A stretch of 64,000 nucleotides of DNA from an uncultured Planctomycetales bacterium. Lineage in GTDB: Bacteria > Omnitrophota > Gorgyraeia > Zapsychrales > Fredricksoniimonadaceae. The position numbers and the translations under genes are program-made. How positions within the stretch are numbered: the first letter of the stretch is position 1; every line of letters begins with the position of its first letter. The DNA lies in NCBI GenBank assembly GCA_964572155.1, contig CAZNDZ010000001.1, forward strand, positions 207,300 to 271,299, given 5' to 3'. This document shows positions 30,783 through 61,580 of the stretch, in pieces. The notes under the pieces are model-generated. The model saw nothing but the letters and a program-made list of their open reading frames with translations. It did no database searches and had not been told where the DNA came from.

Positions 30783-30942
30783 AATATGTAACGCTCCCTT
30801 CTTAAGACCCCGTCCTGCGACTTTAAATTTGGTGCAGTAAACTCCATTTCTTAGTGTAAAAGGGAGGTAGCTGAACCAAAAAATTTTTGTGGTTTCCGAT
30901 TAAACTGTTTATGACTTTAAATAACACTTGTGCATTTTAGTC

Positions 30943-30970
30943 TTGACTTTTCTGCAGATGTATGCATAAT
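30943..30970 (+). promoter_or_regulatory. Sigma70-like promoter TTGACT-N16-CATAAT that would start a leaderless transcript at ATG 30978
   Basis: TTGACT at 30943-30948 and CATAAT at 30965-30970. No SD precedes either GTG 30930 or ATG 30978. Confidence 0.3.
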
Positions 30971-30977
30971 AGTCAGC

Positions 30978-32099
30978 ATGCAACGTTACCTATTTGATTT
31001 GATCAGAAACGATCTTGACAGAAAAATTGTCCTTTTAAGCGGCCCACGACAGGTTGGCAAGACAACCATGGCTAAATCATTTTATGTTAATTCTAGCGAG
31101 TACTTTAATATGGACAATGCGCAGGATCGTTTGTTGATCAAAAAAATGGCCTGGAGACGTGACGCTGATTTGATCATTTTCGATGAATTACATAAGATTA
31201 AGAAATGGAAAGGTTGGATTAAAGGAATATATGATTCACATGGCATTCGGCCAAGGCTTTTCGTTACTGGTTCCTCAAGGCTAGATATCCTTCGTAAAGG
31301 AGGAGATTCTTTGGCAGGCAGATTCTTTCATTTCAGGTTACACCCGATATCGATTGCAGAAGTAAAAAATCAGTATGATCCTGCTGAAGCTCTTGACCGC
31401 ATCATGAAATTCGGAGGCTTTCCAGAGCCATTCTTAAATGCAGATGAAATATATACAAAACGATGGCGAAAATCTCATATTGAAACCATCTTAAAAGAAG
31501 ATGTTTTAGATGTTTCCTCTGTTCATGATATTCGCGGGATTGAAACCTTAACCACCCTGCTAAGTAATTGTGTCGGCAGCTCTATATCTTACGAATCTTT
31601 ATCAAGAGACTTGGAAGTCTCTCCGCACACCATCAAACAGTGGATAAAGATTTTAGAGAGCTTATATATTATATTTGTAATTCATCCTTATTCGAATAAT
31701 ATCGCGCGTAGCTTACTAAAACAGCCCAAAGTTTATTTCTACGATACTGGAGCTATTAAAGATGATCCTGGGGCTAGATTTGAAAATGCAGTAGCGTGTG
31801 CTTTATTAAAACGGCTTCATTTTCTGGAAGATGCGCTTGGCGAGAAATGTGCTTTGAATTATTTAAAAGATAAAGAAAAAAGAGAGGTTGATTTCATCAT
31901 GGTGCGTAATAGTAAGCCCGAATCATTAATTGAGGCGAAACTCTCTGACACTAAAACATCTTCGATTAACCACTTTGCTCAGTTTTTTGATAAAGAGGTT
32001 TCAAAAATATTGCTCGTAAAAAATATTGAGCGAGAATTGTTTCTCGAAGGTGTTCATGTTAAACGTGCGGATGTGTGGTTAAGTAAATTGGAAGCTTAA
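30978..32099 (+). CDS. AAA+ superfamily ATPase of the COG1373 / DUF4143 family
   Basis: MQRYLFDLIRNDLDRKIVLLSGPRQVGKTTMAKSF... (Walker A) ...LIIFDELHKIKKWKGWIKGIYD... (Walker B), typical COG1373 architecture. The track ORF starts at GTG 30930. The internal ATG 30978 is preferred because the product begins with the family-typical MQRYL... and a promoter overlaps the extension. Confidence 0.75.
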   Translation: MQRYLFDLIRNDLDRKIVLLSGPRQVGKTTMAKSFYVNSSEYFNMDNAQDRLLIKKMAWRRDADLIIFDELHKIKKWKGWIKGIYDSHGIRPRLFVTGSSRLDILRKGGDSLAGRFFHFRLHPISIAEVKNQYDPAEALDRIMKFGGFPEPFLNADEIYTKRWRKSHIETILKEDVLDVSSVHDIRGIETLTTLLSNCVGSSISYESLSRDLEVSPHTIKQWIKILESLYIIFVIHPYSNNIARSLLKQPKVYFYDTGAIKDDPGARFENAVACALLKRLHFLEDALGEKCALNYLKDKEKREVDFIMVRNSKPESLIEAKLSDTKTSSINHFAQFFDKEVSKILLVKNIERELFLEGVHVKRADVWLSKLEA

Positions 32100-32103: not shown

Positions 32104-35100
32104 TTACTGCAAGAATTCTTTGAGATTAGACAGGGGGAGGATGTTGAGGATGATCGGGGTGAGGCCTGGGGCGCTTTGGGTCTTTTGTAGTGTTTCGGGA
32201 GAAAGATTAAATTTAATATCTTGTCCATTGCTAGTTAAGCCTATATCTAAGTCATTAAAATCAATACCGCCGTAGCTATCTTGTTCATTATCAATGACTT
32301 TCTGACTTAACATTGCTTTATCATCTGAAAGAAAGGCTGTTTTTACAAAAATATCTGGGAAACTTTCTTCAAGTTTTGCTCTTGCTCCATCCACAAGCCC
32401 ATCACCAGATATCACAAGTACTTTCTTATTCTGCTTTGCATAAACTTCTAAATCTTGTCCGAGCTTAATACCCGAATCCCTAAGCAAAGCAACATATTTC
32501 CTTTCAAGTGCTATTCTTTCTTGAACTAAAATCACATCTTCTGGTTTTGCTTTTGCCAAAATACTTTCTAATCTTGTAATATCTGCTCCATGGGCCTTAA
32601 TTGCTGCTTCTAATTCAGAAATTGTTCTGGACTTTCTAATCTCATCAAAAAACTTTATGTTCTCCAAAGGTACACCATTTTGTGCCACCCAAAAGGATGA
32701 CCTAACAATAAGTTGATTTAACTTTGTTCTTATTTCTTGTTCCTCGGGGTTTGATGGATGAACCATTTGAAATGTATTTCTACCAACAAATATCTTAGAA
32801 TCTCTCATAACAAGATTCTCCCAATCGCTCATCATTATTGCCCTAATTAATCTTACGGATTGCTTCTTAAGTTCTTCCTCGTTATCCCACTTTTGAGAAC
32901 TAGAAGCAAAGATTGAGTCAATAATCTTTTCGCTTTGTACCCATCGAGCCTTAGCTCTTTCGATATCAAAATCCTTAGAGTTAATCGTAGCTGTAACAAA
33001 GGCAACATTATAAATATCTGGAAATTGTTTTAACTGATCTAGAATTTCCTCAAAATTCTTCTCGGAAGCATTTGCTTCTTTAATTCCTCTTCGGTTCAAC
33101 ATGCGAATTAATTCACCTTTTGTTTCGCTTGTTGTCTTACCACTTGTTGCAATCGTTCTAATTGTATCTCTAACCTCTGGAGAAAACCCTCTGCCGCCAA
33201 CTAATACAATGCTTGGATTTTCCTTCTTCGCCACAACTTCCACCTTCTTTTCATCTTGAGCCTTACTAATACCTCCCGCTAATAATGAACTCGTAGCAAC
33301 TAACGCTTTTCTTCTACTAACTTTATTACTTAACATTGCTCGATCGTCAGAGAGATAGTGAGCCTCTACTACTGCATCGGGTAAATTACTTTCCAAGGCC
33401 GACTGAGTATCTGCAATAAGACCATCCCCAGTGAGAACCAAAACTTTCTTACCTTGTTTCGCGTAATTCTCTAGCTCTTTCGAAAGAATTTCTGAAAATT
33501 GTTTTCCTAATGCAAGATGCTCACGATGAATAGTTAATCTCTCGTCTACTAGAGCAACATCTGATGGACGAACTTTCATTAAAGCATCTTTAAGTCTTTG
33601 GATTTCCATCGCTCTTTTCTTAATAACACCTTCAAGCTCTGCGGAGTTTCTTGCTGCTGTTATCTCATCGAAGAATTTTATATACTCGAGTGGTACATTA
33701 TCTCTTGCTGTCCAAAATGTAGAACGTATAACGTGCTCTTGAATCTTGGCAACCTTATCTTTTGCTTCTGAGGTCGTAGGGATTACCAATTGAACTGCTT
33801 TGCGATCTTTAAAAATGGTTGAATCTCTCATTACTAAATTCTCCCACCCACTCATTACAAGCGCTCTAGCTGCTTTAATTGCATATTGCTTTAACTCGTC
33901 TTCATTGTCCCATTTTCTAGAACTAGAAGCAAAAATTGCATTTATAACTTGTTCACTTTGTGCCCATCTGGTTTTAGCTCTTTCGAGATCAAAATCTCTT
34001 GGATTTAATGCGGTGACCGTAAACGCTACCGTATCAATTTCTTTATATTTTCTTAAAAAACCTAACATTTCATTCATGTTCTTCTCAAAAGCATCAACTT
34101 CTTTTTTGCCTTTTCTTAATAATGCCGTGATTAACTGTGCCTTTGGATCTGTAGAAGCTTTTCCAGTTACAAGAGGAAGAATTGTATCTTTTACCTCTGG
34201 AGAGAACCCTCTTCCCCCAACCAAAACTATACTTGGGCTTTCTCTTTTGCCCACAATCTCCACCTTCGTCAGCATTGGCGTATTGCCATCTCGTTTTGAA
34301 ATAGCGACGATGGGTTTGCCTTCGATTCTTGCGTGGGTTCTGATGGCGTCCATGGCGGCGCGGTATTTAGTGGCGTTCTTTAAGGTGTCTGGGGATATGC
34401 GGACATAGAAAATTTTTCTGTTTTTAAATGCGTCGGGGTTGGCGCGTTTAAGCATGGTCCATGGATCTGCAATGCCATGTAAGACAGCTTCTGTGACAGC
34501 TGTGATCGTCAGCGGTAAGTTGATCATGCCTTTGCCTTGTTCTGTCAAAAGATTCTTGATGGCTGTGGCTGTGGCGTCTAAATTAGCCTCGCCTTGAGCA
34601 AGGGGTTCGGGAACTAAATTTTCATTTTCGCTTTGATAGATAATCACCACATTTGAGTCGGCGTCTTTCGATAAAACTTTTTGTAGATCATCCATGCCTA
34701 GTCGAATTTGAAGCAACTTCTTTTGCATTTTATCGGTGAACTTTAATAATTGAGCAACGCCTTCTTTATCTTTTAACTGAGCGCGTTGTATTGCCTCAAG
34801 CTCTGCCTTCTCATCATCGCTATATCCCTGCATGATAACGCTCTCGATTTTTTGCTCGTCAGAACCAGCAAGAGCTAACACAGTTCCCGCTACAGCGATT
34901 TGACCTGCTCGGCTTAAGAATTTTCTTCTGGTTTCACCCGACATCGCCTTGTCCAACGGAACCGAACCAGAAAAAGCTAAGTTAGCTTCCACAACAAATT
35001 GACGCTTGCCTACTTGCTCTGCGCTCATGGCTTTATTGGTGATGTTAACGGTTTTATCAATATTCCCAAACGACGCCCCGCCGGAGAAATACTTTCTTGG

Positions 35101-36162
35101 AATCGTCTTTTGGGTTAGTGGGTCTTGTTCTTCCTTAATATAGTTATAGGCACCGACTTTGAAGGCTTCGATGTATTGTTGATAGATTTTTTCATTGGTT
35201 TGGTCGTCGTTAAACTTGATGCCGGCGACCTTGTTTTGATTGGCGTAGGCTTGTGAAATGACGCTGTCTTTTAATTTCTTTTTATACCATGTGGCTAAAA
35301 TGAGTGAATTATAGACTTGGCGGACGGTGGCGAAATTCTTGCCTTCGTTGATTTCTCTTTGTAATAGTGGAAGAACTACTTCTCTGATGACATCGGAAGC
35401 GACAAGAGCGGGTCCTGTCACTGAACTATTGCTTTTGTCCTCGCGAAACCCATCCCCCCGTGGGGTAGCAGGAGATGAAGCCATTGATCCCCTTTCGCTG
35501 CGGGTAAAATCAACAGCTTCAGCGCCACCCGCGACGTTCTTTTTTGATGCAAGGTAGTCTTGCTCCATCATAACTTTAAGGGACGATTTGACGATATAAG
35601 CGCTGCCAGATGTTGGGTTTTCGTAGACTTCGGCTTCGCTTGGGACGATCCAGACTTTATTGAAGGTATTGATAGGTACCGTAGCTGTGCCAAAACGCTC
35701 TTTGGCTTGGGCATAGACTTTAGCCCAAAATTCTTTTCCAGTCTGACTTTCTGGATATATGATCGAAGCTGTAAGTTGTTTGAGTATATAGTCTTGCGCC
35801 AAAAGGTCGCGGCCCATTTCGGTTTGGCCGAAGCTTTGGGGCACGATGCGGTCCTTCTCATAAGGGCTTAAGTTAACCCATAAATCGCCATAAGGGGTTG
35901 TGACAGCGGCTAGGAAATATTTAACGAGCTTGGTGGCTTCTGGCTTGCTTACGGGGCTTTTTTGATCGCCTTGGTCTAAGACGAAATCAAAGCGGAATGG
36001 ATCATCGCGGTGAACCTTAATCCCGCGCAAGGTTGGCGCCACAAAAGACGGACTTACATTGACCATGGTCCCTGGTTTTGGCAACACCAAAGAATCTGCC
36101 TTCACAGGCTGGATAAAAGTCAATAAAAAACAAAAGATTAATATTGGGGCTATTCTCTTCAT
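32104..36162 (-). CDS. Secreted 1352-aa protein with a tandemly duplicated ~315-aa module of unknown function
   Basis: Signal peptide MKRIAPILIFCFLLTFIQPVKA|DS. Two paralogous units: aa ~638-950 (KRESPSIVLVGGRGFSPEVKDTI...KKVLVLTGDGLIADTQSALESNLPDAVVEAHYLSDDRAMLSNKV) and aa ~978-1290 (KKENPSIVLVGGRGFSPEVRDTI...KKVLVISGDGLVDGARAKLEESFPDIFVKTAFLSDDKAMLSQKV), ~45% identical by eye. The unit ends faintly resemble the TraB/GumN/Tiki family. Confidence 0.8.
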   Translation of the reverse strand: MKRIAPILIFCFLLTFIQPVKADSLVLPKPGTMVNVSPSFVAPTLRGIKVHRDDPFRFDFVLDQGDQKSPVSKPEATKLVKYFLAAVTTPYGDLWVNLSPYEKDRIVPQSFGQTEMGRDLLAQDYILKQLTASIIYPESQTGKEFWAKVYAQAKERFGTATVPINTFNKVWIVPSEAEVYENPTSGSAYIVKSSLKVMMEQDYLASKKNVAGGAEAVDFTRSERGSMASSPATPRGDGFREDKSNSSVTGPALVASDVIREVVLPLLQREINEGKNFATVRQVYNSLILATWYKKKLKDSVISQAYANQNKVAGIKFNDDQTNEKIYQQYIEAFKVGAYNYIKEEQDPLTQKTIPRKYFSGGASFGNIDKTVNITNKAMSAEQVGKRQFVVEANLAFSGSVPLDKAMSGETRRKFLSRAGQIAVAGTVLALAGSDEQKIESVIMQGYSDDEKAELEAIQRAQLKDKEGVAQLLKFTDKMQKKLLQIRLGMDDLQKVLSKDADSNVVIIYQSENENLVPEPLAQGEANLDATATAIKNLLTEQGKGMINLPLTITAVTEAVLHGIADPWTMLKRANPDAFKNRKIFYVRISPDTLKNATKYRAAMDAIRTHARIEGKPIVAISKRDGNTPMLTKVEIVGKRESPSIVLVGGRGFSPEVKDTILPLVTGKASTDPKAQLITALLRKGKKEVDAFEKNMNEMLGFLRKYKEIDTVAFTVTALNPRDFDLERAKTRWAQSEQVINAIFASSSRKWDNEDELKQYAIKAARALVMSGWENLVMRDSTIFKDRKAVQLVIPTTSEAKDKVAKIQEHVIRSTFWTARDNVPLEYIKFFDEITAARNSAELEGVIKKRAMEIQRLKDALMKVRPSDVALVDERLTIHREHLALGKQFSEILSKELENYAKQGKKVLVLTGDGLIADTQSALESNLPDAVVEAHYLSDDRAMLSNKVSRRKALVATSSLLAGGISKAQDEKKVEVVAKKENPSIVLVGGRGFSPEVRDTIRTIATSGKTTSETKGELIRMLNRRGIKEANASEKNFEEILDQLKQFPDIYNVAFVTATINSKDFDIERAKARWVQSEKIIDSIFASSSQKWDNEEELKKQSVRLIRAIMMSDWENLVMRDSKIFVGRNTFQMVHPSNPEEQEIRTKLNQLIVRSSFWVAQNGVPLENIKFFDEIRKSRTISELEAAIKAHGADITRLESILAKAKPEDVILVQERIALERKYVALLRDSGIKLGQDLEVYAKQNKKVLVISGDGLVDGARAKLEESFPDIFVKTAFLSDDKAMLSQKVIDNEQDSYGGIDFNDLDIGLTSNGQDIKFNLSPETLQKTQSAPGLTPIILNILPLSNLKEFLQ
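32292..33231 (-). repeat. Repeat unit 2 of the duplicated module (protein level)
   Basis: As above; collinear with unit 1. Confidence 0.6.
33310..34251 (-). repeat. Repeat unit 1 of the duplicated module (protein level)
   Basis: Coordinates derived by counting residues in the ORF translation. Confidence 0.6.
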
Positions 36163-36225: not shown

Positions 36226-37164
36226 TTAGTTGCCACCCAGCTTTTTAAGCGGGTTATTTTGGAAGAAGTCTAAGAAAACAGGTCCGGCAACCAAGATCCC
36301 AACCACTGGAAAGATAAACAAAAGTAATGGGATGAGCATTTTAAGTGGGGCTTTCATGGCCATTTGTTCGCCGCGGCGAAATCTTGCTTCGCGCATGTCT
36401 TCGGATAAGATGTTGAGCGCTTCACTGACTGATGTTCCCATGCGGTCAGCTTGGATGAGCGTACGCGCAAAAGTGGATAAATCTGGTAAATCATATTTGC
36501 GGGCCATGTCACGCAATGCGTCGCGGCGTGGTTTGCCGACATTGATCTCTTGGATCATGTTGCGCAATTCTTGGATGATCACCGTCGGCGCAGATTTTTC
36601 AATCACATATTTTAATGCCATCATAAAATCAAGACCTGCATTAACGCAAAGCCCTAAAAGATCGACGGTGTCAGGCAAATCGCGCACCATGGCATCGCGA
36701 ATTTTGCTAATCTTCGACTTGAGCCAAAAATCTGGCAGGAAATAACCAGCACCAATCGCGACAAAAATACCCATCATAAAACCTTCGTTGCTGGGCTCGA
36801 TAAAAATAAACACAACCCAAATCAACGCAAAGATCATAGCTTCTTTAAGCAAGATAAACTCTTCGGGACTAATCGGCACGCGTGCCATGCTTAAATCCTT
36901 CGCGATGCGTTGACCCAATGCTCCGACGACAAATGGCTTATTAAACACCGCAAAACGGGTGCTCATGTCTGAAATAACAAAGGCTAACCCTGTTTTCTTA
37001 GCTGTTCTGCTTTGTGGCGCGGCAATGCCTGTAACGGCAGGATCAGCCATGGGATCCATGTTTAGCGTCGGACGAAATACAATTTTAAACGGGATAAACA
37101 TGAGGCCTATGGCCATCACCGTCATGAACGCAAACAATAATCCAACAAATAATAAAGCTGACAT
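36226..37164 (-). CDS. tadC: Tad pilus inner-membrane platform protein (T2SS-F domain), TadC-like
   Basis: 312 aa with an N-terminal TM, a cytoplasmic T2SSF-like domain (...DLPDTVDLLGLCVNAGLDF...) and C-terminal TMs. It follows a TadB-like gene, in the usual tadA-tadB-tadC order. Confidence 0.7.
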   Translation of the reverse strand: MSALLFVGLLFAFMTVMAIGLMFIPFKIVFRPTLNMDPMADPAVTGIAAPQSRTAKKTGLAFVISDMSTRFAVFNKPFVVGALGQRIAKDLSMARVPISPEEFILLKEAMIFALIWVVFIFIEPSNEGFMMGIFVAIGAGYFLPDFWLKSKISKIRDAMVRDLPDTVDLLGLCVNAGLDFMMALKYVIEKSAPTVIIQELRNMIQEINVGKPRRDALRDMARKYDLPDLSTFARTLIQADRMGTSVSEALNILSEDMREARFRRGEQMAMKAPLKMLIPLLLFIFPVVGILVAGPVFLDFFQNNPLKKLGGN

Positions 37165-38027
37165 TAGAAGTCCTTAAATTTAGAAATTTTCCAAATGCTC
37201 AACGCGCCAAGTGTCCATAAGATGATACACGCAACCGTTAATTGTTGTCCCATCGGTGAATCACGCATAACATCAAAAAAATGAGGATTGCTTGACGAGA
37301 CAGCAAAATAGAATAAAACAGGCAAGCCTGTCATGACGACACCTTGGATTTTTCCTTGCACCGTCAATGTGGTTAAGCTTTGTTCAACCTTGCGTCGCTC
37401 GCGGGTGGAGGCAATGATGCGCGAGAAAATAAGCGCCAAGTTCCCCCCTGTTTCACGTGCTAACAAAACAGCGGTGACCACTTGCTGCATCGCTGGTGAC
37501 GGCATGCGCTTATAAAGACGGTTTAAGCTATCGTCCAAGGCAACCCCCATTTTATTTTCACCAAGGACAATACCAAATTCTTGACGCAGGGGATCAGGCA
37601 TTTCTTCGACGACAGACTCAATGGCTTGAATCAAACTCAGACCACCGCGGAACGAACTCGACATGATCATTAACGCATCCATCAATTGATTAGCAAACAT
37701 ACTCTTGCGTTTTGAAATCAAGTAACTTAAATGCACGCGAGGGATAAACACGCCTGCGACAATGCCGACGACAATACCGGCAAATTTCATGTCCGGTGGC
37801 GCAAAATAAACTGCCAAGCCGCCCAACAACAGCGGCACATAAATGATCATCTTCTGCGACTTTTTGATCTGATCTTCATTTAGAACAGCGTCGAACTTTA
37901 CAGCAAATTGTGCCTGACTTTTTTGATTCAAGGCAGCTGCGCGCTCCATCATGAAAGGGACAATGAAAATGACCACGATCATGACAGCCGCAAAAACAAG
38001 TATTAATCCGACGAACAAACTAAACAT
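37164..38027 (-). CDS. tadB: Tad pilus inner-membrane platform protein (T2SS-F domain), TadB-like
   Basis: 287 aa, TM-T2SSF-TM architecture (...MPDPLRQEFGIVLGENKMGVALDDSLNRL...). The stop overlaps the tadC start at 37164. Confidence 0.7.
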   Translation of the reverse strand: MFSLFVGLILVFAAVMIVVIFIVPFMMERAAALNQKSQAQFAVKFDAVLNEDQIKKSQKMIIYVPLLLGGLAVYFAPPDMKFAGIVVGIVAGVFIPRVHLSYLISKRKSMFANQLMDALMIMSSSFRGGLSLIQAIESVVEEMPDPLRQEFGIVLGENKMGVALDDSLNRLYKRMPSPAMQQVVTAVLLARETGGNLALIFSRIIASTRERRKVEQSLTTLTVQGKIQGVVMTGLPVLFYFAVSSSNPHFFDVMRDSPMGQQLTVACIILWTLGALSIWKISKFKDF

Positions 38028-38039: not shown

Positions 38040-38375
38040 TTATCTATTTGAACAAAATGCTGTCTGACATTCTGTTTTAACATCATCTTCACAAGCATAA
38101 TTGCCAGGTGTGCACGATTGAACTTTTCCTTGATAACAGGTGGCGTCATACCAAATGCCATTATTCGCATCAAGCTGTGAATAATCACATTCGACCGTAT
38201 TGCCATTATAGCGTCGACCCATCCCAAACGCATCGCCGCTTTTCTTCCAACTACCGCCAAACGCGCGGATCACATACGGCGAGATCACAATCATCCCACC
38301 TATGACGATTATAACCAATGCCATGTATTCCACAATAGATGCTGCTGTTTTTTTACGTAACATGATTATGGACAT
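38040..38375 (-). CDS. Flp/TadE-type pilin-like protein with a 7-Cys C-terminal domain
   Basis: Class-III signal-peptide-like N-terminus KKTAASIVEYMALVIIVIGGMIV, then ...VECDYSQLDANNGIWYDATCYQGKVQSCTPGNYACEDDVKTECQTAFCSNR. Confidence 0.6.
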   Translation of the reverse strand: MSIIMLRKKTAASIVEYMALVIIVIGGMIVISPYVIRAFGGSWKKSGDAFGMGRRYNGNTVECDYSQLDANNGIWYDATCYQGKVQSCTPGNYACEDDVKTECQTAFCSNR

Positions 38376-41300
38376 TTCTCAAAGTGAACACCTAACCCAC
38401 CGCTGTTATTGTCCCTGCCATACCGTGCGCAGACAGACGTTGTAACCCCCTTGGGTAATAAATTAAACATAACGTGATCATAACAGGCGCGCCCAGCACC
38501 ATTGAGCGGAGGCTCTCCGCTGATCATAAATGCGCCTTGCAATAGTGGCTTTGTTAAATTCGATGTTTCAACACCCCACACTGAACTTAATTGAGTGAAG
38601 GTGTCTGGATTAGCACTTAAACCTATCTTGTTCCAACTATTCGCGCCACCCGTACAAGGGATGGATGGATTTTGCGCATCTTCTGTCCCTGGCTTTCTAA
38701 AGCTGACCTTCCAAATGGGCATCTTGTTGGCAAAACTTGCCGTATCATGGTCTTCATCCCAGCGCACCACATTCACGCGAGCCATGCCGTCATAATTACG
38801 CAAGAAATAACAACGCGTCATCCCTAAGAATCCTTTTCTCTTGGTGCCAATTGATGGCAATGTCCCCGGCGCTGAAGCAGACACTTGCACCACATGCCAA
38901 TACCCTTCCGTCCTGCCCTTGCCAACCGGAGGATCCGGATCACGCCAGCCATAGATGATAGAATTTGGAATACTGTTTATCTGCGCTGCATTTTGTGCTG
39001 TGCGCGCCGCCACTAAGGCTTGTGCAGGGCCATCAATAAATGTCTTTAGATCGTCGGTAAATTCTTCAACAGCTTCTGTTGCGGAGCTCACATTGGCCAA
39101 AATTGGGCTCAAATAATTATAACGATTCCTGAATTTCTCCTGCTGTCCGCCAGGTCCTGTCATGGCAGCCATGGTATTATCTAACCATGTCTGATATTGT
39201 CCTTTATTATTAACACCCGCAGTACAGACATCATACGGACCTGTGTAATTTCCATACACCGAACGCGGCAATGTTGTTGCTTGATCACATTCAGGGCTTG
39301 GTGGACGATTTGGATTCGTTGCGCAGTATTGCGCAAACGTTTGTTCACCCGCATAACTAGCTTGACTATCTTGCAGCCATTGAGAATACGCGACCGGCGT
39401 GCTGCAATCATCGGGCATCGGCACAATCGCCGACGCTGGTAAATTTTGACAGCTAGCTATTGGGCCATTGGCACAAATTTGACTAATCGTATTGCTACCA
39501 TACTCCGTGATCTTGCTTTGTAGCCATGTGACATACGTATTTCCTAAACATACATTGGCATTTGTAAAACTTGGCTCGCCAGTGGTATTGGCTAATACAG
39601 TGCACGCCGTTGGTTTTGTTGGAGCGCCACAATATTGTGCCCGCGTTTGACCAAAATACGTAATGCTTTGATTAAGCCAATTAATATACTCAGAGTTAAC
39701 TGCGCACCCATCATAAATATCTGGCTTAGCGGGCGATGGCGCTGTTAATGCAAAACTATCGCAATCTGGCGACGGGGGTGCTGTTGGATTGCCGGCACAA
39801 TAACCTGGACCAGCAGCTTTTAATGTATCAATACGAGCTAAACACCCTCTATATTGATCTGATGCTTGGGCTTTGGCCAACGTTGCATTAACCGCTGTCT
39901 GACAAGTGTCAAACGTTTGCGCTTGGATGGCTTTATCATAATCTGTTTTACATGTTTGGAATTTAGCAACCAATGTCCCCGAATTTTTAATCCCTTCAAT
40001 CTTATCTTGGCATCGTTTAAAATAATAATGCGCTCCTGCTTGTGAATCGTAGTCGGAATACCATTTCAAGCATTGAACCACTGTCGGTAACGTGCCCCAC
40101 ACATTGCCTGCTGCAATGGTGTTTTGTTCAAGCGTTGATAAGCCCCCTTGATTGGTTGGCACACACCATGCTGTGTCACTGGAATGATCCTTATCTAACC
40201 AAGGGCGTAAGTGTGTTTCCCCCCATGTTTTAAGTCGGCGATGAAGCGTATATAATGCACCGCCGTCAGCACCATCACTATATCCATTGCCACACACAGC
40301 ATCATTGTTGCCATCACAAACCGGACCAACCCAATCTTTACCGCTTAATTGAGGAGGATTGGGCGTCTCATCATAAAATGTTTCTAGGCTCGTTGATAGG
40401 ACTGCTGGATCCGTCGCTAAAACTGCTTTGCCCCATGCATAAAATAACTTTAAATGATCGATTGTATCGTCGAGTAAATCTTCTGGCCACAAACCGCTGG
40501 TAGATTCCGCAGCTGTACAGCAATCATCCCCGTTATTCACTCCCGCGCAATTATACTTGTCACATTCTTCATAAGGCCAATCTGGCGTGCGGCAAAATGC
40601 TTCCTTGCCGGGCTTCCAGTTCAAACCATCTTCCGGCGCTGTTGTATTAGCACACATGTTTGCAGGTGCAAAAAATTTCGGATCTGAATCCACCGCATCA
40701 GAAATAAGCGCGCTTGGTGCGGTTGCGGCAATATCTGCATCGCTTGGTTTATGACGAATGTCTTGCATATCCCACAATGCTTTAAATAATCCTGTGTTAT
40801 TGGGAGAAGCAGGATTAGTGGTAAAGACATTAGGATACCCGCCAACACGCGCTTCTTCATCAATCCCTAACTTCGATAAGAATGAATCAAATTTTGTATA
40901 ATCTGGTCGTGTTGGGTCATAGGACAAGGGATATGTGCTGCCAAAAGCCCAAACATTGCCATTGTTACAAATTGCGGGAACTTGTGCCCGATCAGGACAA
41001 ATGTTGGCGGCTGGTCTTAAACTCTTGCCCGATTCTGGATCTGTCAATGGCTGACAACAAGGGTTATATCGAGGATCTTTAGATTTTACATCTGGCGCTG
41101 GATTGGAAATCTTTGGTAAAAGGGTGGTCAAGCCACTGGTGAATACACTTAAATCAACGGTTCCACGCTTAGATCTTAAGGCGCGTAATTGCTCCGTGTT
41201 ATAAAATGCATACCGAGAAATAGTATCTTCAGATTTACCGCGATCCACATTAAAACCATGTCGGCCATTACTATTGGAATCAAAATAATCCGTAACCTGC

Positions 41301-41842
41301 GCGGGATCTGTCACCGCATTTTGCAGCGCCCCTTGCAGGGCATTTGATAAAAATGTCTCCGTCGTCGAAAGCCCCGCATCTTTCTGCAATTGATTCCAAT
41401 ACCGCGTCAATCCCGGCTGAACCACCGCCACTTGCAACACCAAGCTTGCTGCGGATAAAGCTATCGATGCGGTTCCAACCGTGATCCCTAAACCAGGCAC
41501 CACTTGACTTAATGCAGCTTGACATGGTGTACAAAAAGTAACAATAATAATTACTAACAACAATGACAACAATGCCCCAAAAATACTGTTGTGTTTACAT
41601 TTCTGAAATGCACCGCCCAACTGCGTGCGCATTTGCATTTCACCGTAGCTCGCATAATTCGACGCCAACGATGACGCCGATGTTGTTGCTGCCACTGTCG
41701 TCACATTCTTAATCTGGGAAATACGACCCCAATTAAGCGTGATCGCAAATAAAATGATCGCAATTGAGCTCATGATGATTAACAATACTGAAGCTTGTCC
41801 GTTTTTCTTATGCATGCATCCTCTAATATTTAACCGCGGCAT
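38366..41842 (-). CDS. Giant (1158 aa) TadG/TadE-family pilin-like protein with a Cys-rich ~50-aa repeat array; putative pilus tip adhesin
   Basis: N-terminus ...MHKKNGQASVLLIIMSSIAIILFAITL (TadE/G-like; the real start may be M10 at 41815). The protein has more than 60 Cys. Repeats: CLKWYSDYDSQAGAHYYFKRCQ, CAVNSEYINWLNQSITYFGQTRAQYCG, CLGNTYVTWLQSKITEYGSNTISQIC, CSTPVAYSQWLQDSQASYAGEQTFAQYC, CTAGVNNKGQYQTWLDNTMAAMTG. Confidence 0.6.
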   Translation of the reverse strand: MPRLNIRGCMHKKNGQASVLLIIMSSIAIILFAITLNWGRISQIKNVTTVAATTSASSLASNYASYGEMQMRTQLGGAFQKCKHNSIFGALLSLLLVIIIVTFCTPCQAALSQVVPGLGITVGTASIALSAASLVLQVAVVQPGLTRYWNQLQKDAGLSTTETFLSNALQGALQNAVTDPAQVTDYFDSNSNGRHGFNVDRGKSEDTISRYAFYNTEQLRALRSKRGTVDLSVFTSGLTTLLPKISNPAPDVKSKDPRYNPCCQPLTDPESGKSLRPAANICPDRAQVPAICNNGNVWAFGSTYPLSYDPTRPDYTKFDSFLSKLGIDEEARVGGYPNVFTTNPASPNNTGLFKALWDMQDIRHKPSDADIAATAPSALISDAVDSDPKFFAPANMCANTTAPEDGLNWKPGKEAFCRTPDWPYEECDKYNCAGVNNGDDCCTAAESTSGLWPEDLLDDTIDHLKLFYAWGKAVLATDPAVLSTSLETFYDETPNPPQLSGKDWVGPVCDGNNDAVCGNGYSDGADGGALYTLHRRLKTWGETHLRPWLDKDHSSDTAWCVPTNQGGLSTLEQNTIAAGNVWGTLPTVVQCLKWYSDYDSQAGAHYYFKRCQDKIEGIKNSGTLVAKFQTCKTDYDKAIQAQTFDTCQTAVNATLAKAQASDQYRGCLARIDTLKAAGPGYCAGNPTAPPSPDCDSFALTAPSPAKPDIYDGCAVNSEYINWLNQSITYFGQTRAQYCGAPTKPTACTVLANTTGEPSFTNANVCLGNTYVTWLQSKITEYGSNTISQICANGPIASCQNLPASAIVPMPDDCSTPVAYSQWLQDSQASYAGEQTFAQYCATNPNRPPSPECDQATTLPRSVYGNYTGPYDVCTAGVNNKGQYQTWLDNTMAAMTGPGGQQEKFRNRYNYLSPILANVSSATEAVEEFTDDLKTFIDGPAQALVAARTAQNAAQINSIPNSIIYGWRDPDPPVGKGRTEGYWHVVQVSASAPGTLPSIGTKRKGFLGMTRCYFLRNYDGMARVNVVRWDEDHDTASFANKMPIWKVSFRKPGTEDAQNPSIPCTGGANSWNKIGLSANPDTFTQLSSVWGVETSNLTKPLLQGAFMISGEPPLNGAGRACYDHVMFNLLPKGVTTSVCARYGRDNNSGGLGVHFEKCP
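39150..40075 (-). repeat. Array of about 5 Cys-bounded 'C..Y..WL......(Y/F)G......(Y)C' repeats (aa ~591-896) in the 1158-aa protein
   Basis: Residue positions counted in the ORF translation: aa 591-612, 713-739, 765-790, 813-840, 872-896. The period is ~50 aa. Confidence 0.55.
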
Positions 41843-42050
41843 TCACGCGCTTTGTTCGATAAAATTCTGGTTGTAACTGCTGACGTACGTCTGTCCCATT
41901 TGTCATCGTGCTCTCATTTTCATAACGGCGTTCCGCTAAATCCATCCCCGCCCAGCGAAAAATCCGAATCATCCCTAAAGCTAATAAACAAATGGCAATC
42001 ATCACAAAGGTCATCTCAATCGTTGATTGGGCCCTTACCTTTCGGGTCAT
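41823..42050 (-). CDS. TadE-like small pilin-like protein (75 aa)
   Basis: KVRAQSTIEMTFVMIAICLLALGMI class-III SP-like N-terminus. Sits between the two large pilin-like genes and overlaps both ends. Confidence 0.5.
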   Translation of the reverse strand: MTRKVRAQSTIEMTFVMIAICLLALGMIRIFRWAGMDLAERRYENESTMTNGTDVRQQLQPEFYRTKRVNAAVKY

Positions 42051-43402
42051 GGTAATTTTCCTTTAGTGTCCGTCAGCCACGCATGCCCTGTTTTGTCTAA
42101 AACGCGTGTACGTATATACAGCATTTTAGAATCTGTGTCGAAACAGGTTAACTTAATATTATCTCCTGAGAAACACGATGACCCTCCCAATATACCCCCG
42201 CCGCCACATGCTTCCACAGGATTTTCTGTATTGTCAGGTAAGGTTGCCCTGGGCACGCCATTAACACAAAAACGTTGTGTGTCTCTGGTTAACTGAAACA
42301 TGCGTTGAACCAGTTCCACTTGATTTTTAACACCCGTGCTGCGCGCATATTGTCCGTCCTCAGGATTATAAAGTTTTCCTTCTTTAACTTCAAAGTATGT
42401 GCCAGGTTTTGTTTGCGTTAAAATGGACATTTCCCGCTGCAAGCCTGGGGTTCTGCCATTGATATACTCAACACTGCCATCATAATCCCCTTCTTGATTG
42501 TCCATGACCGTTGCTGATGATGCAATGCCATTGGCATCCACGTTATACGCGTAAATCTGTTCATCTTGCCCGTCATTGTCTAAATCAAATGAGGTATTTG
42601 TGCTATTGCCCACATCCACATTTAAATCAATAGCCCTAACTGCTTTCCAGTGCCATGCCATATCCGCACGGGCTAATTTGCCATTGGCAGCAGCCACTTG
42701 AGGATCGTCAGTAAAAATGTCATTGCGGTTTAGGTCATACGCTTCTTTATCTGTTAAAACACCTTGGTCTGCATTGGTCGACTGATTATAAAATAGCGGA
42801 CAGCCGTGCCACGTTTCAACAACTGGATTAACAAGCGGATCGCTGGTTGTTCTTAAACACTGAAATTCCCAACCCTTGTATCGTGTGATGCTAGTGTCGT
42901 CTGGATTGGTTGGCGTGATCGCAACGGGGGTTCCTGAATATGAACGTTGAAATCCCGCCGGCGGATCAAATGTTTTTGGCACCAGCGCCGCCGTGGTTAA
43001 AGGAATATGCACACCATTAACATAAAGATCGGTGGTTGGAAAATTACGTGCGTCAGATAATTCTGAACCTTCGAGGGGGTAATACAATAAATTGGTTAAC
43101 ATGCCGCTGCCCATGGTAAAAAGTTGCGTGCGGTCACTGTTGCCATAGCGGCTAATATCTGGTGAAAGTCTGTCTTCTAAATAAATCACACTACTATTCA
43201 TGCGACCAACGGTTCTGGTCAAAGAGTCATTATACGATTGCAAGAGCGCCATGCGCATGGCTTTTAATTGCACATTTTGTTGCTGGCTTGCAGACACACT
43301 GTTGCGGACAATGCCGCCGATCAAAAACACTAAGACAGCACCGAATACAGCTAATTCCGTCGCTGCTTGTGCTTTTTTATGCTTATTGAGAAACAAAAAC
43401 AT
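42047..43402 (-). CDS. TadG/TadE-like large pilin-like protein (~451-463 aa)
   Basis: ...MFLFLNKHKKAQAATELAVFGAVLVFLIGGIV... N-terminus. The track start is 43438; the internal ATG 43402 is preferred because it reduces overlap with the upstream pilin gene. The remainder is hydrophilic and Asp/Asn-rich. Confidence 0.55.
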   Translation of the reverse strand: MFLFLNKHKKAQAATELAVFGAVLVFLIGGIVRNSVSASQQQNVQLKAMRMALLQSYNDSLTRTVGRMNSSVIYLEDRLSPDISRYGNSDRTQLFTMGSGMLTNLLYYPLEGSELSDARNFPTTDLYVNGVHIPLTTAALVPKTFDPPAGFQRSYSGTPVAITPTNPDDTSITRYKGWEFQCLRTTSDPLVNPVVETWHGCPLFYNQSTNADQGVLTDKEAYDLNRNDIFTDDPQVAAANGKLARADMAWHWKAVRAIDLNVDVGNSTNTSFDLDNDGQDEQIYAYNVDANGIASSATVMDNQEGDYDGSVEYINGRTPGLQREMSILTQTKPGTYFEVKEGKLYNPEDGQYARSTGVKNQVELVQRMFQLTRDTQRFCVNGVPRATLPDNTENPVEACGGGGILGGSSCFSGDNIKLTCFDTDSKMLYIRTRVLDKTGHAWLTDTKGKLP

Positions 43403-43709
43403 TCCCACTCTTGCTCTCCGAGGATGACGATGAATCAATGCGATTCGTAAAATATTCTGTCTGCCCTGTTTGTGGATTTAACAACGGAACCGCCTGGACC
43501 ATGGTTTGAGATTGCGCCTGTGATGAATACCTGACGACGGAATTAACTTTCGATGGATCATACTGATCACCAAAATCATCGACGCTTTGCTTCCACCGCC
43601 CCTGAAATCCGCGCTTGATATACGTATTCATGGCCAGAAGCGCGAAAATAACAATCATCGCCAACACAATAAACTCAACCATCGATTGTCCATTATGTTT
43701 AAGTTTCAT
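43383..43709 (-). CDS. Flp-family pilin-like protein 8 (108 aa)
   Basis: MKLKHNGQSMVEFIVLAMIVIFALLAM: G/xxxxEF motif plus a hydrophobic helix. Confidence 0.6.
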   Translation of the reverse strand: MKLKHNGQSMVEFIVLAMIVIFALLAMNTYIKRGFQGRWKQSVDDFGDQYDPSKVNSVVRYSSQAQSQTMVQAVPLLNPQTGQTEYFTNRIDSSSSSESKSGNVFVSQ

Positions 43710-43712
43710 AAC

Positions 43713-44033
43713 TTAATTAATCCCTGCGTTTGTGACTGTATTTGTAAATGTTTGTGACGTTTCACTAACAATGGTTTGTATCCCCGCCGCTGTTTCATAA
43801 ATTTCTTTATTACTGCCCATTGAAACCATGGAATTTGACGTATCTAAATGCGATGATCCCGCACTATAATCTTGCTCAGAATTTTCTTGTGCTGCTAATT
43901 GGTCTGCCGTTGCCTTAATAATGCTTTGCGTTCCACGTTTAAAAGAGGGCGCCATAAAATACACCGCTGTCATCACCACGCCGACGATGATAATATATTC
44001 AACCAAAGATTGTCCCTGCGCATTATATTTCAT
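43713..44033 (-). CDS. Flp-family pilin-like protein 7 (106 aa)
   Basis: MKYNAQGQSLVEYIIIVGVVMTAVYF. Confidence 0.6.
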   Translation of the reverse strand: MKYNAQGQSLVEYIIIVGVVMTAVYFMAPSFKRGTQSIIKATADQLAAQENSEQDYSAGSSHLDTSNSMVSMGSNKEIYETAAGIQTIVSETSQTFTNTVTNAGIN

Positions 44034-44440
44034 TTAGCAGCCTCTGCTGGTGGCAACTGCGCACTGTCCGACCCTATTTGAGTGCTTTGTGCAAAATATT
44101 TTCCCCATCGCCCGTTTTCATCAAGAACCTTTTTATCCACACTATCGCGTCGCACCTCTGCTTCTGACTGGCCATAATATGGCTCATACTCATACGCTAT
44201 TTTTTGCGTTGCTGGATCAACCTTGGCTGCTCCTAAACAATCAACGCCACCGGCCGTTGCCTGCGTGCAGGCTTGGGTCGCCATATCAACCATATAAATT
44301 TTTCCATCACGATGCCTTGCTTGAAGGCCGCGCTGCACATAAAGTGTCATGGCTGAAATGCCTGCCACCACTACAAAAAACAAAAGCACGTATTCGCTGG
44401 TAACCATCTGCCCTTTGCGTGCGTGCTTGAGTTTCATCAT
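44030..44440 (-). CDS. Flp-family pilin-like protein 6 (136 aa)
   Basis: MMKLKHARKGQMVTSEYVLLFFVVVAGISAM; the C-terminal part contains 3 Cys. Confidence 0.55.
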   Translation of the reverse strand: MMKLKHARKGQMVTSEYVLLFFVVVAGISAMTLYVQRGLQARHRDGKIYMVDMATQACTQATAGGVDCLGAAKVDPATQKIAYEYEPYYGQSEAEVRRDSVDKKVLDENGRWGKYFAQSTQIGSDSAQLPPAEAAK

Positions 44441-44543
44441 ATCATCTCTAAATTTGCTTGAATATTATAAGCCCTAAAGGGGGGATATCGCTATCCCCCC
44501 TTATAAGACTTAAGACACCTCTTAACAAAAACACCTTAAGAGA

Positions 44544-44876
44544 CTATTCCCACTTCTCTCTGGAGGTATTAATGATTTGCGATGTTTCTGTTGTTAGATT
44601 GCTTTCAGTACCATTAATTACCGTCTTTGAAACACCTTGACCAGCGGCGCCACCAAATGTTTCGATGGTGTTGCTGTGCGTTGATGTTATTTTAACGGCC
44701 TTGGTATTGTCTGGTGAATATTGATCACCGATATCATCCGCAGATGACTTGACCTTACCTTGGATACCACGTTTGAGGTATGTTTGCACCGCGAGCAATG
44801 CGCCGATGATGATGATGATCAAAATCGCGTATTCAAGCGTGCTTTGAGCTTTCTTATTATTAAAGTGTTTAAACAT
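44544..44876 (-). CDS. Flp-family pilin-like protein 5 (110 aa)
   Basis: MFKHFNNKKAQSTLEYAILIIIIIGALLAV. A strong SD (AAGGAGGAG) precedes the ATG. Confidence 0.65.
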   Translation of the reverse strand: MFKHFNNKKAQSTLEYAILIIIIIGALLAVQTYLKRGIQGKVKSSADDIGDQYSPDNTKAVKITSTHSNTIETFGGAAGQGVSKTVINGTESNLTTETSQIINTSREKWE

Positions 44877-44893
44877 TACAACTCCTCCTTGTA

Positions 44894-45262
44894 TTAGAGC
44901 CCAGTTGGCATGTCGCCTGTACCAGCTGTAACATTATTTGAATATGTGGTTGATTGTTCACCTTGTTTTAAACGAGAATTTGCACTATCAGCTGCAACAA
45001 CACCTTCATCTAATATCTTTTTCTCTGTAGAATCTTTTTGAACAGAATAATTAGATTGTTGGTAATAAGGTTCATATTGCACTGATTTTCCTAATTGGCC
45101 TGTTGAATTAGCCATATAGGTACTGGCGTCACGCACACGGGCTTGCAATGCACGTTGTGCATATTGTTGCATCGCCACGATACCTGCCACAACCAAGGCG
45201 ATTAACAACGCATATTCTGCGGTGTTTTGAGCTTTCTTATTCTTTAATAAATGCTTAAACAT
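44894..45262 (-). CDS. Flp-family pilin-like protein 4 (122 aa)
   Basis: MFKHLLKNKKAQNTAEYALLIALVVAGIVAM; SD AAGGAGGAAATA upstream. Confidence 0.65.
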   Translation of the reverse strand: MFKHLLKNKKAQNTAEYALLIALVVAGIVAMQQYAQRALQARVRDASTYMANSTGQLGKSVQYEPYYQQSNYSVQKDSTEKKILDEGVVAADSANSRLKQGEQSTTYSNNVTAGTGDMPTGL

Positions 45263-45285
45263 ATATTTCCTCCTTATATGGGAAA

Positions 45286-45588
45286 TTAACCTTCACAATT
45301 ATTAGTTGCTGGATTGAATCTTTGATTTCCAGTACACAAACCTTGATTGGCTTGATTGCCAAAAATATTTGTATTAACTGTTGTTGTTGTAAATGTATCT
45401 TGTGCCGTAACCAATTTACCTGCCATGCTGTTAGCTTGTTGGGTTACTTGATCCATAGACGCATTCATTCTTTGCTTGAATGGGCTCGCATCTGAAACTA
45501 AGAAGGCGATTAAGATGACAATCACCCCTGTGACCAAGACGATATATTCTACCGTGCTCTGGCCTTTTTGACGATTTCTTAAAAACAT
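45286..45588 (-). CDS. Flp-family pilin-like protein 3 (100 aa)
   Basis: MFLRNRQKGQSTVEYIVLVTGVIVILIAFLV; SD AGGAGGAACA upstream; 2 Cys near the C-terminus. Confidence 0.65.
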   Translation of the reverse strand: MFLRNRQKGQSTVEYIVLVTGVIVILIAFLVSDASPFKQRMNASMDQVTQQANSMAGKLVTAQDTFTTTTVNTNIFGNQANQGLCTGNQRFNPATNNCEG

Positions 45589-47988: not shown

Positions 47989-50175
47989 TTATGGATTAAA
48001 AATATTCTTAGAAAGTGGGATGCCGCGTGTTTGGAAGTCTTCGAAAATTTTTGGCACATACCCTGTGGGCGTATATTCACCAACAACAACCCCTTCGGCA
48101 TTGATGCCGCGTTGACGGAAGATGAAAATGTCTTTCATTTCAGGAAGGCCGTCGACCATGTTACCTGTAAGCTCCGTGATCGCGGTGATCTTACGCGTCC
48201 CGTCGGAGAAACGGTTAATTTGAATGACAATATTGATCGCAGATGCCGCCATTTCATAGATCGCGCGCAATGGCAATTCAATCCCTGAGAGCAGCACCAT
48301 GGAGGTCACACGAGACATAACGTCGCGTGGTGTGTTGGCGTGAAGCGTTGTCAACGAACCATCGTGACCTGTGTTCATCGCCTGCAACATGTCTAAAACT
48401 TCCGGTCCACGACACTCACCGATAATAATGCGGTCTGGGCGCATACGTAACGTGTTAATAAATAACTCACGGATGGTGATCTTACCACGACCTTCAATGT
48501 TCGCTGGTCTTGCTTCAAGGCGCGCCCAATGTGATTTGGTTAAACGCAATTCCGCCGCGTCTTCGATTGTAATGATGCGTTCATTATCAGGAATAAATTG
48601 TGAAACAATGTTGAGCAGCGTTGTCTTACCAGCGCCGGTACCACCAGAGACAATAATATTCTTACGCCCAATAACGCACGCATTCATAAACTCACCCATG
48701 GCAGGCGTCAGCGAATGAAAACGATTAAGCAAATCATCGATCGTATATTTTTCTTGAGAGAATTTACGAATGGTGATCATGGGGCCGCCCAACGACAACG
48801 GCGGAATGATGGCATTGATACGGCTTCCATCAGGCAAACGCGCATCCACCATCGGCGTTGATTCATCAACCCGACGACCTAAAGGTGCTAAAATACGATC
48901 AATCGTTGCACGCACCTGATCGTTGGAAATAAAACGCTTATTCGTGAGCAGCAATTTACCTTTTTTCTCAACAAAGATTTCATCCTTATTGTTAACCATG
49001 ATGTCATTGATATCGACATCCGCTAAGAAATCTTCCAATGGCCCCAAACCTAAGGCCTCGTTGACAATTTCACGCACAAGTTTAGAACGTTCTTCTTGAG
49101 ATGAAATAAAACTACCCGATGCATCGGTCATCAAATCGGTTACAATAACTTCGGCTGCCTTGCGAATATTTGCAGCTTGCGCAGGATCTGAGAGCGCTTC
49201 CGGCGATATCTTTTGCAAATTCATGCGCTCAACCAACTTTTGATGGATTAAGCGCTTTAATTTAATAACTTCGTCTTCTTCTTTTTTAAAATAAGTCCCG
49301 CCACCAGAGCCCTGCTTAATACCAAATTTTTCCCAGAACTCGGCATCTTTCTTATTCTTAGGGTCTGCCGAGCGAACCTTAACAACGTCGGAGACCTGCA
49401 CAAAGATGTCTTCATCTTGTAATTTATCCGCCATGCCAAAAAACAGCTCGGAGACTTTTGCCTTTGGACTGTCTAAAACACATGGAATACCGCGATTAAG
49501 CGCTGAACCAACGGTTTTACCGTCGGATGGGATTAACGCAAAAATATCGCAAGGCAATGCTGTTTTCACTTCTTGCCATGCAACACCCCCGCGACTTTCA
49601 GCACGATTTAATATGATTTTAATCATACGCAGCGGATAATGCAGTGCTTGCAACATCTCAAGCGTTGACTTGGCTTGATACACCGCCAAGACATCCGGCG
49701 TGGTTGGCAAGAAAATCAAACTAGATTGATCAAGAACGCTAATCAAGACTTCATTAAATGTGCCGCCGCCATCGACGATGATATATTCATATTGTAACAT
49801 GGCGCGTTTTAAAAATATGCGCACATTGTCGCCTGTCACCAAACCTGCTTGCCGTAAATGATTAATGCCAGATAAGAAATCAACGCCGCTAACATGCTTA
49901 ACCACAAAACGACGCATAAAATCTGGGTTGTCATCTTTGGCCACTTCAGCGAGCAAGTCTGCTAAACAAAATGGTGCGGAAATATTTAAGGAACGGGCAA
50001 GATCTTGACCCGCTTGTAAATTCATATCAAGCAACAATACTTTCTTAGCCTTCATGGCAAGCGCGGCAGCAATGTTTGCGCTAATAAAGGTCTTACCGAC
50101 CCCGCCCTTATTGGAAAATATGGTTATGATTTTACAAGACATACTTCTCTTTGGATCATTTTGCCTGGTAGACAA
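47989..50175 (-). CDS. cpaF: Fused Tad secretion ATPases: N-terminal CpaE/TadZ-like ParA/MinD ATPase plus C-terminal CpaF/TadA VirB11-family ATPase (728 aa)
   Basis: N-part: KIITIFSNKGGVGKTFISANIAAALAMKAKKVLLLDMNLQ (deviant Walker A) ...YIIVDGG... C-part: ...IIVSGGTGAGKTTLLNIVSQFIPDNERIITIEDAAELRL...PDRIIIGECRG...NTGHDGSLTTLHAN... (CpaF/TadA Walker A and B, Asp and His boxes). One ORF, no internal stop. Confidence 0.8.
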   Translation of the reverse strand: MSTRQNDPKRSMSCKIITIFSNKGGVGKTFISANIAAALAMKAKKVLLLDMNLQAGQDLARSLNISAPFCLADLLAEVAKDDNPDFMRRFVVKHVSGVDFLSGINHLRQAGLVTGDNVRIFLKRAMLQYEYIIVDGGGTFNEVLISVLDQSSLIFLPTTPDVLAVYQAKSTLEMLQALHYPLRMIKIILNRAESRGGVAWQEVKTALPCDIFALIPSDGKTVGSALNRGIPCVLDSPKAKVSELFFGMADKLQDEDIFVQVSDVVKVRSADPKNKKDAEFWEKFGIKQGSGGGTYFKKEEDEVIKLKRLIHQKLVERMNLQKISPEALSDPAQAANIRKAAEVIVTDLMTDASGSFISSQEERSKLVREIVNEALGLGPLEDFLADVDINDIMVNNKDEIFVEKKGKLLLTNKRFISNDQVRATIDRILAPLGRRVDESTPMVDARLPDGSRINAIIPPLSLGGPMITIRKFSQEKYTIDDLLNRFHSLTPAMGEFMNACVIGRKNIIVSGGTGAGKTTLLNIVSQFIPDNERIITIEDAAELRLTKSHWARLEARPANIEGRGKITIRELFINTLRMRPDRIIIGECRGPEVLDMLQAMNTGHDGSLTTLHANTPRDVMSRVTSMVLLSGIELPLRAIYEMAASAINIVIQINRFSDGTRKITAITELTGNMVDGLPEMKDIFIFRQRGINAEGVVVGEYTPTGYVPKIFEDFQTRGIPLSKNIFNP

Positions 50176-56361: not shown

Positions 56362-56375
56362 CTTTCAACTTCCTC

Positions 56376-58838: not shown

Positions 58839-58849
58839 TGCTACTCCTT

Positions 58850-61276
<2,427 letters not shown>

Positions 61277-61552: not shown

Positions 61553-61580
61553 TTGGCAACCATTAATTTTAAAATTATTT

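Follow-up and report, generated by a model that had tools for sequence, protein, structure and literature searches.

A 64,000-nucleotide (nt) stretch of contig CAZNDZ010000001.1 (assembly GCA_964572155.1, positions 207,300 to 271,299; hereafter the window), from an Omnitrophota genome deposited as an uncultured Planctomycetales bacterium, was annotated and compared in this study. It carries a minus-strand Tad-type locus followed by a giant gene, and between the pilin-like genes and the platform genes TadB and TadC lies a gene for a large, cysteine-rich protein (hereafter the target gene and target protein). This gene is a conserved core subunit gene of the Tad-type machine, and its product is a membrane-anchored protein with a pilin-type start and a cysteine-rich domain of about 1,000 residues, whose folding must take place outside the cytoplasm. 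The initial annotation had placed a protein of 1,158 amino acids (aa) at 38366..41842. The open reading frame (ORF) is indeed uninterrupted for 1,158 codons on the minus strand, but the gene probably starts at the tenth codon (Met10, ATG at 41815) and encodes 1,149 aa, because this ATG is preceded by AGAGGA, an identical database protein (P0001, encoded on a 1.34-Mb contig) is 1,149 aa long, the homologues start at the position equivalent to Met10, and the first nine codons of the longer frame overlap the end of a separate 75-aa gene, p75 (41823..42050). Residue numbers count from Met10 unless the numbering of the initial annotation is stated. The count of more than 60 cysteines given earlier has to be corrected to 39 in the whole frame and 38 from Met10 (3.4%). 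The following features were recognized along the gene, with a slash marking the putative cleavage site:

38366..41815, minus strand: target gene, 1,149 aa from Met10
41726..41815, minus strand: residues 1-30, basic leader, class III-type motif G6/Q7 without Glu5, and first hydrophobic helix
41417..41587, minus strand: residues 77-133, second and third hydrophobic helices forming a hairpin, family-conserved
40004..41416, minus strand: residues 134-604, conserved Cys/Trp-rich extracytoplasmic core, from alignments and a predicted local distance difference test score (pLDDT) mostly >85
39326..40003, minus strand: residues 605-830, lineage-specific insertion with an [FY]xxC ladder and units U0-U3, pLDDT <50
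39551..39706, minus strand: residues 704-755, unit U1, recognized by a unit hidden Markov model (HMM) at E=2e-20
39407..39550, minus strand: residues 756-803, unit U2, recognized by motif and unit HMM
39227..39406, minus strand: residues 804-863, unit U3, with a tail C831...LPRS conserved family-wide
39071..39226, minus strand: residues 864-915, unit U4, the ancestral copy C..Y..W[LV]..S...KF..R..FL found in the whole family
38369..39220, minus strand: residues 866-1149, conserved C-terminal domain, pLDDT 85-98

When one genome per species was scanned with a pattern, 34 related loci were recovered, nearly all from metagenome-assembled genomes (MAGs) of Candidatus Omnitrophota, some of which were deposited as "uncultured Planctomycetales". 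Essentially all 34 share the same gene order, in which six to ten Flp genes are followed by p463 (a larger pilin-like gene), the target gene, p111, TadB, TadC and the giant gene. Wherever a related locus was long enough to be judged, the target homologue always lay between the p463 homologue and p111-TadB-TadC, and a giant ORF usually followed. Ahead of the Flp genes, the shared arrangement runs secretin, TadZ-TadA, DUF192 and p493, and p75 separates p463 from the target gene. The orthologue in V. archaeovorus is assigned to CP019384.1, locus 12382-29832. The family is large: an exhaustive profile search identified 728 clusters (50% identity) at E<=1e-3, most of them full-length with 950-1,900 residues, and 365 clusters at E<=1e-30; a word-indexed search returned only 14-23 relatives. 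The MAG nzgw313 contains two p463-target-p111-TadB-TadC blocks (L016 and L025), which indicates that some genomes possess two such machines. One family member with p111, TadB and TadC as neighbours (L034, JBLINE010000030.1) comes from a contig of 7.6 kb assigned to Lysobacterales, probably through an error in binning, although an occurrence of the family outside Omnitrophota is conceivable.

West-Roberts et al. (10.1101/2023.11.21.568195) described a conserved system resembling type II secretion that lies upstream of Omnitrophota giant genes, and the locus has also been called a Tad complex, which is expressed in the archaeon-killing V. archaeovorus (Seymour et al., PMC10066038). Like the published loci, the window contains genes for a Rotamase_2 peptidyl-prolyl isomerase (PPIase), RcpC, a secretin, GspE/TadA and small class III proteins, together with two GspF/TadB-C genes, and these are followed by a giant ORF exceeding 10,169 aa; by conserved synteny the target gene belongs to this giant-gene-associated locus of the Tad or type II secretion system (T2SS) kind. 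As far as searched, the target protein is not singled out in either of the two papers, which name recognisable subunits only and leave this protein of about 1,100 aa among "less well conserved", unnamed components. The comparison presented here shows that this protein is syntenic in 34 loci and belongs to a family of 728 clusters.

The class III-like N-terminus described in the initial annotation was supported. The target protein begins with MHKKNG/QASVLLIIMSSIAIILFAI, in which KKNG/QASV follows the pattern basic-[GA]/Q-[SA] that is common to nine adjacent pilin-like genes. Among 116 family N-termini, Gly occupies position -1 in 113 and Gln position +1 in all, with a basic leader before and about 20 hydrophobic residues after. 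The target protein has the basic leader ending in Gly or Ala and the stretch of about 20 hydrophobic residues that characterize type IV pilin-like proteins, but the Glu5 of pilins is missing from the family: every one of the 116 sequences carries I, V, L or M at +5. The nine neighbouring pilin-like genes all encode Glu at +5, so that among the ten adjacent genes only the target gene is without it. Tip subunits, GspK among them, typically lack Glu5. A weak similarity between the target family and the Flp1 family of the same locus was detected with hhalign (P=2.8e-4 over 55 columns, in register).

Beyond this first helix, the target protein possesses two further hydrophobic helices, with Kyte-Doolittle maxima of 2.77 and 1.85, respectively. 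Three transmembrane (TM)-like segments were found in 86 of the 116 relatives and four in another 27. At residues 95-98 (~41522..41533), in the short loop that joins helices two and three, there is a CTPC (CxxC) motif, which otherwise occurs only in the relative P0004.

The extracytoplasmic core carries the family motifs VVQPG.T..WN, DYFD.N.NG, CNPCC, WKPG..C..WPY and WCVP, and residues 447-620 form a helical subdomain. The C-terminal domain, predicted to consist of a long helix (891-945) and a beta-sheet, carries the motifs IYGW.D, GYWH.V, RWDEDH, AFML and KF..CP. Family members have a mean of 46 cysteines per protein, of which about 20 positions are conserved, and so large and cysteine-rich a domain implies an oxidising, extracytoplasmic location. 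Five residues in and around "DYFDxNxNG" are invariant (D170, D176, D179, D197 and R201; residues 170-201, ~41213..41308), and from this residue pattern the region would appear to resemble calcium-binding loops of the DxDxDG type.

An AlphaFold2 model based on an alignment of 81 sequences reached a pLDDT of 77.4 and a predicted template modelling score of 0.69, and was used instead of a poor model from 23 sequences (pLDDT 57). It is confident at residues 1-75, 130-620 and 830-1149 (pLDDT 85-98 in the C-terminal domain) and low at the TM2-TM3 loop and the repeat insert (pLDDT <50 in the latter). The model predicts a 62-residue N-terminal helix (H4-65) that starts within residues 1-30, followed by two further membrane helices, the second of which runs into the conserved VVQPG.T..WN segment, and a largely helical core. 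Full-length Pfam and NCBIfam scans of the target protein and ten relatives gave no match, a search of PDB sequences with the family profile gave 0 matches, and Foldseek searches with the model gave a best E of 0.65 in PDB and nothing below E=0.2 in BFVD. Likeness to alpha-pore-forming toxins of the ClyA family and to TTYH-like helical bundles, at 4-12% identity and over less than 20% of the query, is probably generic.

About five cysteine-bracketed repeats had been proposed at aa ~590-900. Repeats are present, but they are fewer and lie further downstream: we identified three clear units, one ancestral unit and one degenerate unit. The clear units fit C-x(4-6)-Y-x2-W-L-x(5)-[YF]-x(6-9)-C at residues 704-738, 756-789 and 804-843 (713-738, 765-790 and 813-840 in the numbering of the initial annotation); the ancestral unit starts from C864 (QYQTWL...) and has no closing cysteine, and the degenerate unit precedes the clear ones at ~640-703. 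The self-alignment suggested as a check supports the repeats, with windowed Smith-Waterman self-scores of 84, 75, 63 and 60 against a maximum of <=50 in 20 shuffles. The repeat regular expression matches three times in the target protein, whereas only 19 of 2000 shuffles contain at least one match. A second, shorter periodicity was observed at residues 599-658, where [FY]xxC occurs four times in 90 aa, a count reached by two of 2000 shuffles. Comparison of the protein with itself by blastp gave no off-diagonal high-scoring segment pair. At the DNA level no tandem repeat was found in the target gene, from which we conclude that the units arose long ago and have since diverged.

The repeats lie in a part of the protein that varies strongly between relatives. 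Alignment occupancy across the insertion at residues 605-830 is <=0.1 (81 sequences), and it is one of four insertion hot spots in the family (226-275, 326-375, 605-830 and 851-875 in target numbering). Other members carry different inserts at 851-875, with a mean of 61 residues, and some relatives contain PKD or Big immunoglobulin (Ig)-like inserts. The repeat-unit HMM matches only the target protein, apart from one unit each in its two closest relatives, and finds no copies in the other 158 family proteins. Within the family, the search for the repeat in other genomes, as the initial annotation had advised, was thus largely negative, and a repeat module shared across genomes is rejected. As the whole family has U4 and the C831...LPRS tail of U3, these represent the ancestral element, from which U1 and U2 seem to have arisen by local duplication. 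The repeats are a local expansion at a hypervariable site and not a feature of the family. Location at such a site agrees with an exposed recognition surface; the lectin-like fold suggested for them could not be shown, as the region is predicted at low pLDDT.

The other genes of the locus are given below.

41823..42050, minus strand: p75, 75-aa TadE-like pseudopilin gene directly upstream of the target gene (PF07811 match, E=0.045)
42047..43438, minus strand: p463, larger pilin-like protein with the motif KKA/QAATE, syntenic in related loci
38040..38375, minus strand: p111, with an Flp-like N-terminus and a 7-Cys tail of ~50 residues, syntenic in related loci
43383..45588, minus strand: six tandem Flp-type pilin genes (weak PF04021 match)
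36226..38027, minus strand: TadB and TadC platform proteins (PF00482, E=1e-15 and 1e-18)
47989..52785, minus strand: RcpC/CpaB, secretin and TadZ-TadA fusion ATPase, assigned with Pfam
2..30508, minus strand: giant gene of the Omnitrophota type, stop-free for more than 10,169 codons and running off the left window end

The start of p111 overlaps the end of the target gene by 10 nt, and p111 aligns with the Flp6 family (hhalign P=1e-25). The p75 gene (MTRKVRAQSTIEMTFVMIAI...), whose start overlaps the stop of p463 (ATGA), is missed by ORF lists with an 80-aa minimum; its homologues were found in at least 11 of 21 related loci. The six Flp paralogues share the motif [GA]/Q-S-x-V-E-[YF] and are present in 6-10 copies in related loci. 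A DUF192 gene and a gene for a 493-residue protein (p493) are located between TadZ-TadA and the Flp genes. The secretin (50156..51910, minus strand) has a C-terminal TonB_C domain, and TadZ, a ParA/MinD-like protein, is fused to the TadA ATPase (47989..50175, minus strand).

Between TadC and the giant gene lies a gene for a 1,352-aa protein (32104..36162, minus strand) with a signal peptide and no domain match, which is present in only some of the related loci, and an AAA_14/DUF4143 ATPase gene (30930..32099, plus strand) is wedged before the giant gene. The first 30 kb of the window are nearly devoid of ordinary ORFs because they are occupied by the single giant minus-strand ORF, and an alternative genetic code for this region was ruled out on the same ground. 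The window also contains housekeeping genes. The first gene of the locus, encoding the Rotamase_2 PPIase, ends at 53735, and dnaA (cut by the window end), dnaN, gyrB and gyrA are located at 56376..63999, ~4 kb beyond it, which places the Tad and giant-gene region near the replication origin and in co-orientation. A tRNA-Glu gene is present at 56288..56362 on the plus strand.

The initial annotation regarded the target protein as TadG-class, an assignment that was not upheld by family-level comparison. TadG proteins have a PF13400 N-terminus and often vWA or Tad_C domains. The target protein gave no PF13400 match, either full-length or as a 68-aa fragment, and the gathering score of 22.3 bits was not reached by any of seven family N-termini. 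Sub-threshold scores were obtained for three of these (P0005, 18.3 bits; P0019, 16.6 bits; P0004, 13 bits), with E-values of 0.003, 0.01 and 0.13 and alignments in register from GQ, and for these three PF13400 (TadE/G-like) was the best or second-best Pfam family. No Pfam match to vWA or Tad_C (PF09977) was detected at E<=1 in the target protein or ten relatives. The gene does lie in a tad locus beside TadE/F-like pseudopilins, as TadG genes do, but its product has three family-conserved hydrophobic segments instead of the single N-terminal hydrophobic helix of TadG. Given the failed sequence tests and the three helices, we do not file the target protein as a member of the TadG family.

We nevertheless treat it as the positional, and probably the functional, counterpart of TadG/CpaL/KilN. 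It resembles them in being encoded next to TadE/F-like genes of a Tad locus, in starting with a basic leader, a Gly and then a hydrophobic helix that lacks Glu5, and in being by far the largest pilin-like protein of its locus, with a variable distal domain. Different from them, it is about twice the size with 38 cysteines, has three hydrophobic helices and not one, gives no PF13400, vWA or Tad_C match, and is encoded upstream of TadB/C and not at the operon end. Similar to Bdellovibrio, the locus represents a predator-type Tad system with a TadZ-TadA fusion (PMC12075869; 10.64898/2026.07.08.737194), such a TadZA fusion having been reported for Bdellovibrio tad locus 1.

We consider it about an even chance (probability roughly 0.5) that the target protein is a large, Glu5-less minor-pilin-like subunit of the Tad machine, a counterpart of TadG/CpaL/KilN with a disulfide-rich ectodomain and a hypervariable contact region. 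Its gene lies between the TadE/F-like genes and TadB/TadC, the position proposed for TadG-like minor pilins (PMC12075869, PMC12607857). TadE/F/G-like minor pilins in predatory bacteria are described as tips that expose the variable domain of the largest subunit (PMC12075869), CpaL/TadG has been modelled at the pilus tip (PMC12607857), and a priming or tip complex of TadE/F/G-like proteins has been proposed for Myxococcus, Caulobacter and Bdellovibrio (PMC12075869; PMC12607857; 10.64898/2026.07.08.737194). We propose that the target protein would be inserted in the inner membrane, after which prepilin peptidase would cut at G6/Q7, and its long N-terminal helix might then bundle with the helices of p463, p75 and p111 into a priming or tip complex. 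A topmost position would agree with the missing Glu5, and the target protein may occupy it as GspK does in type II secretion. Its disulfide-braced ectodomain, and most of all the variable insertion that carries the C..Y..WL..Y..C units, might contact the prey or host cell or, alternatively, the giant protein encoded next door.

Several observations weigh against this interpretation. Alignment of 116 family N-termini with 120 TadG N-termini by hhalign was null (probability 0.1%, E=0.4), the latter being a narrow sphingomonad set named TadG by NCBI; no significant Pfam, NCBIfam or PDB sequence match was obtained for the target protein; and a prepilin peptidase gene was not found within the window. 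Furthermore, the two strongly hydrophobic helices conserved after the first would hinder extraction from the membrane, and to our knowledge no described pilin or TadG has two such extra helices. These helices motivate the main rival explanation, which we regard as possible but clearly less likely, namely that the target protein is a permanent inner-membrane component whose three TM helices anchor a periplasmic scaffold or gate of about 1,000 residues. In this role it could connect the platform proteins TadB and TadC with RcpC and the secretin, or else serve to guide the giant protein, and the GQ motif would be a relic or docking element and not a cleavage site. Conservation of three or more hydrophobic segments in most relatives, the lack of Glu5 and the location of the gene directly upstream of p111, TadB and TadC agree with this role, and an additional scaffold in the periplasm is conceivable, since apart from RcpC known Tad systems possess no alignment complex of the PilMNOP type (PMC12307814). 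However, the near-invariant G-Q before the first helix, shared with the nine pilin neighbours, is hard to explain without peptidase recognition, and inserts that are hypervariable or Ig-like are more easily understood on an exposed surface than in an internal scaffold.

The reading of the locus as T2SS-like and conserved upstream of giant genes (10.1101/2023.11.21.568195) also allows the target protein to be viewed as an analogue of GspK, capping a T2SS-style pseudopilus that acts as a periplasmic piston and pushes the giant protein or other exoproteins through the secretin. The four minor pilin-like genes (p463, p75, target and p111) equal GspH, I, J and K in number. These four are the minor pseudopilins of the T2SS, and the largest of the four here lacks Glu5, as GspK does; a helical insertion domain is likewise counted as common to GspK and the target protein. 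This view is nevertheless unlikely, as the ATPase, platform and RcpC are of Tad type, the locus encodes six or more paralogues of Flp-type major pilins, neither Pfam nor fold comparison matched the target protein to GspK (PF03934 / PF21687), and a protein of more than 10,000 residues, folded or unfolded, is an implausible T2SS substrate. Least probable of all is a fibre-tip protein whose hydrophobic helical hairpin enters the prey membrane, i.e., a pore-forming or translocator module resembling the ClyA family and deployed by the Tad pilus. It would represent a new kind of pilus-tip subunit, for which we see very little likelihood: a protein of prepilin type whose hairpin stays buried between the helices of the minor pilins while the fibre assembles and enters the prey envelope once contact is made. 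Long helices do flank the conserved hydrophobic hairpin, and one relative weakly matches SseC, a family of type III secretion system translocators (E=0.008), but nowhere in its N-terminal part is the model less confident than at the hairpin (pLDDT 39-52). If true, the Tad fibre of Omnitrophota would be a membrane-piercing device that prepares the delivery or anchoring of the giant protein.

Omnitrophota are widespread, ultra-small bacteria that are thought to be predators or parasites, and their genomes hint at their way of attacking other cells mainly through the Tad-type locus and its adjacent giant genes. The target protein is the universally syntenic and largest pilin-like component of this locus, has neither a curated family nor a specific solved structural relative, and carries hypervariable inserts of the kind expected for a prey-recognition surface. 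Its interest therefore lies not in the repeats but in a large, uncurated family that is fixed in the Omnitrophota Tad/giant-gene locus and that joins a prepilin-type start with a three-helix membrane module. Defining the target protein in this way provides a candidate new protein family and a concrete target for work on V. archaeovorus.

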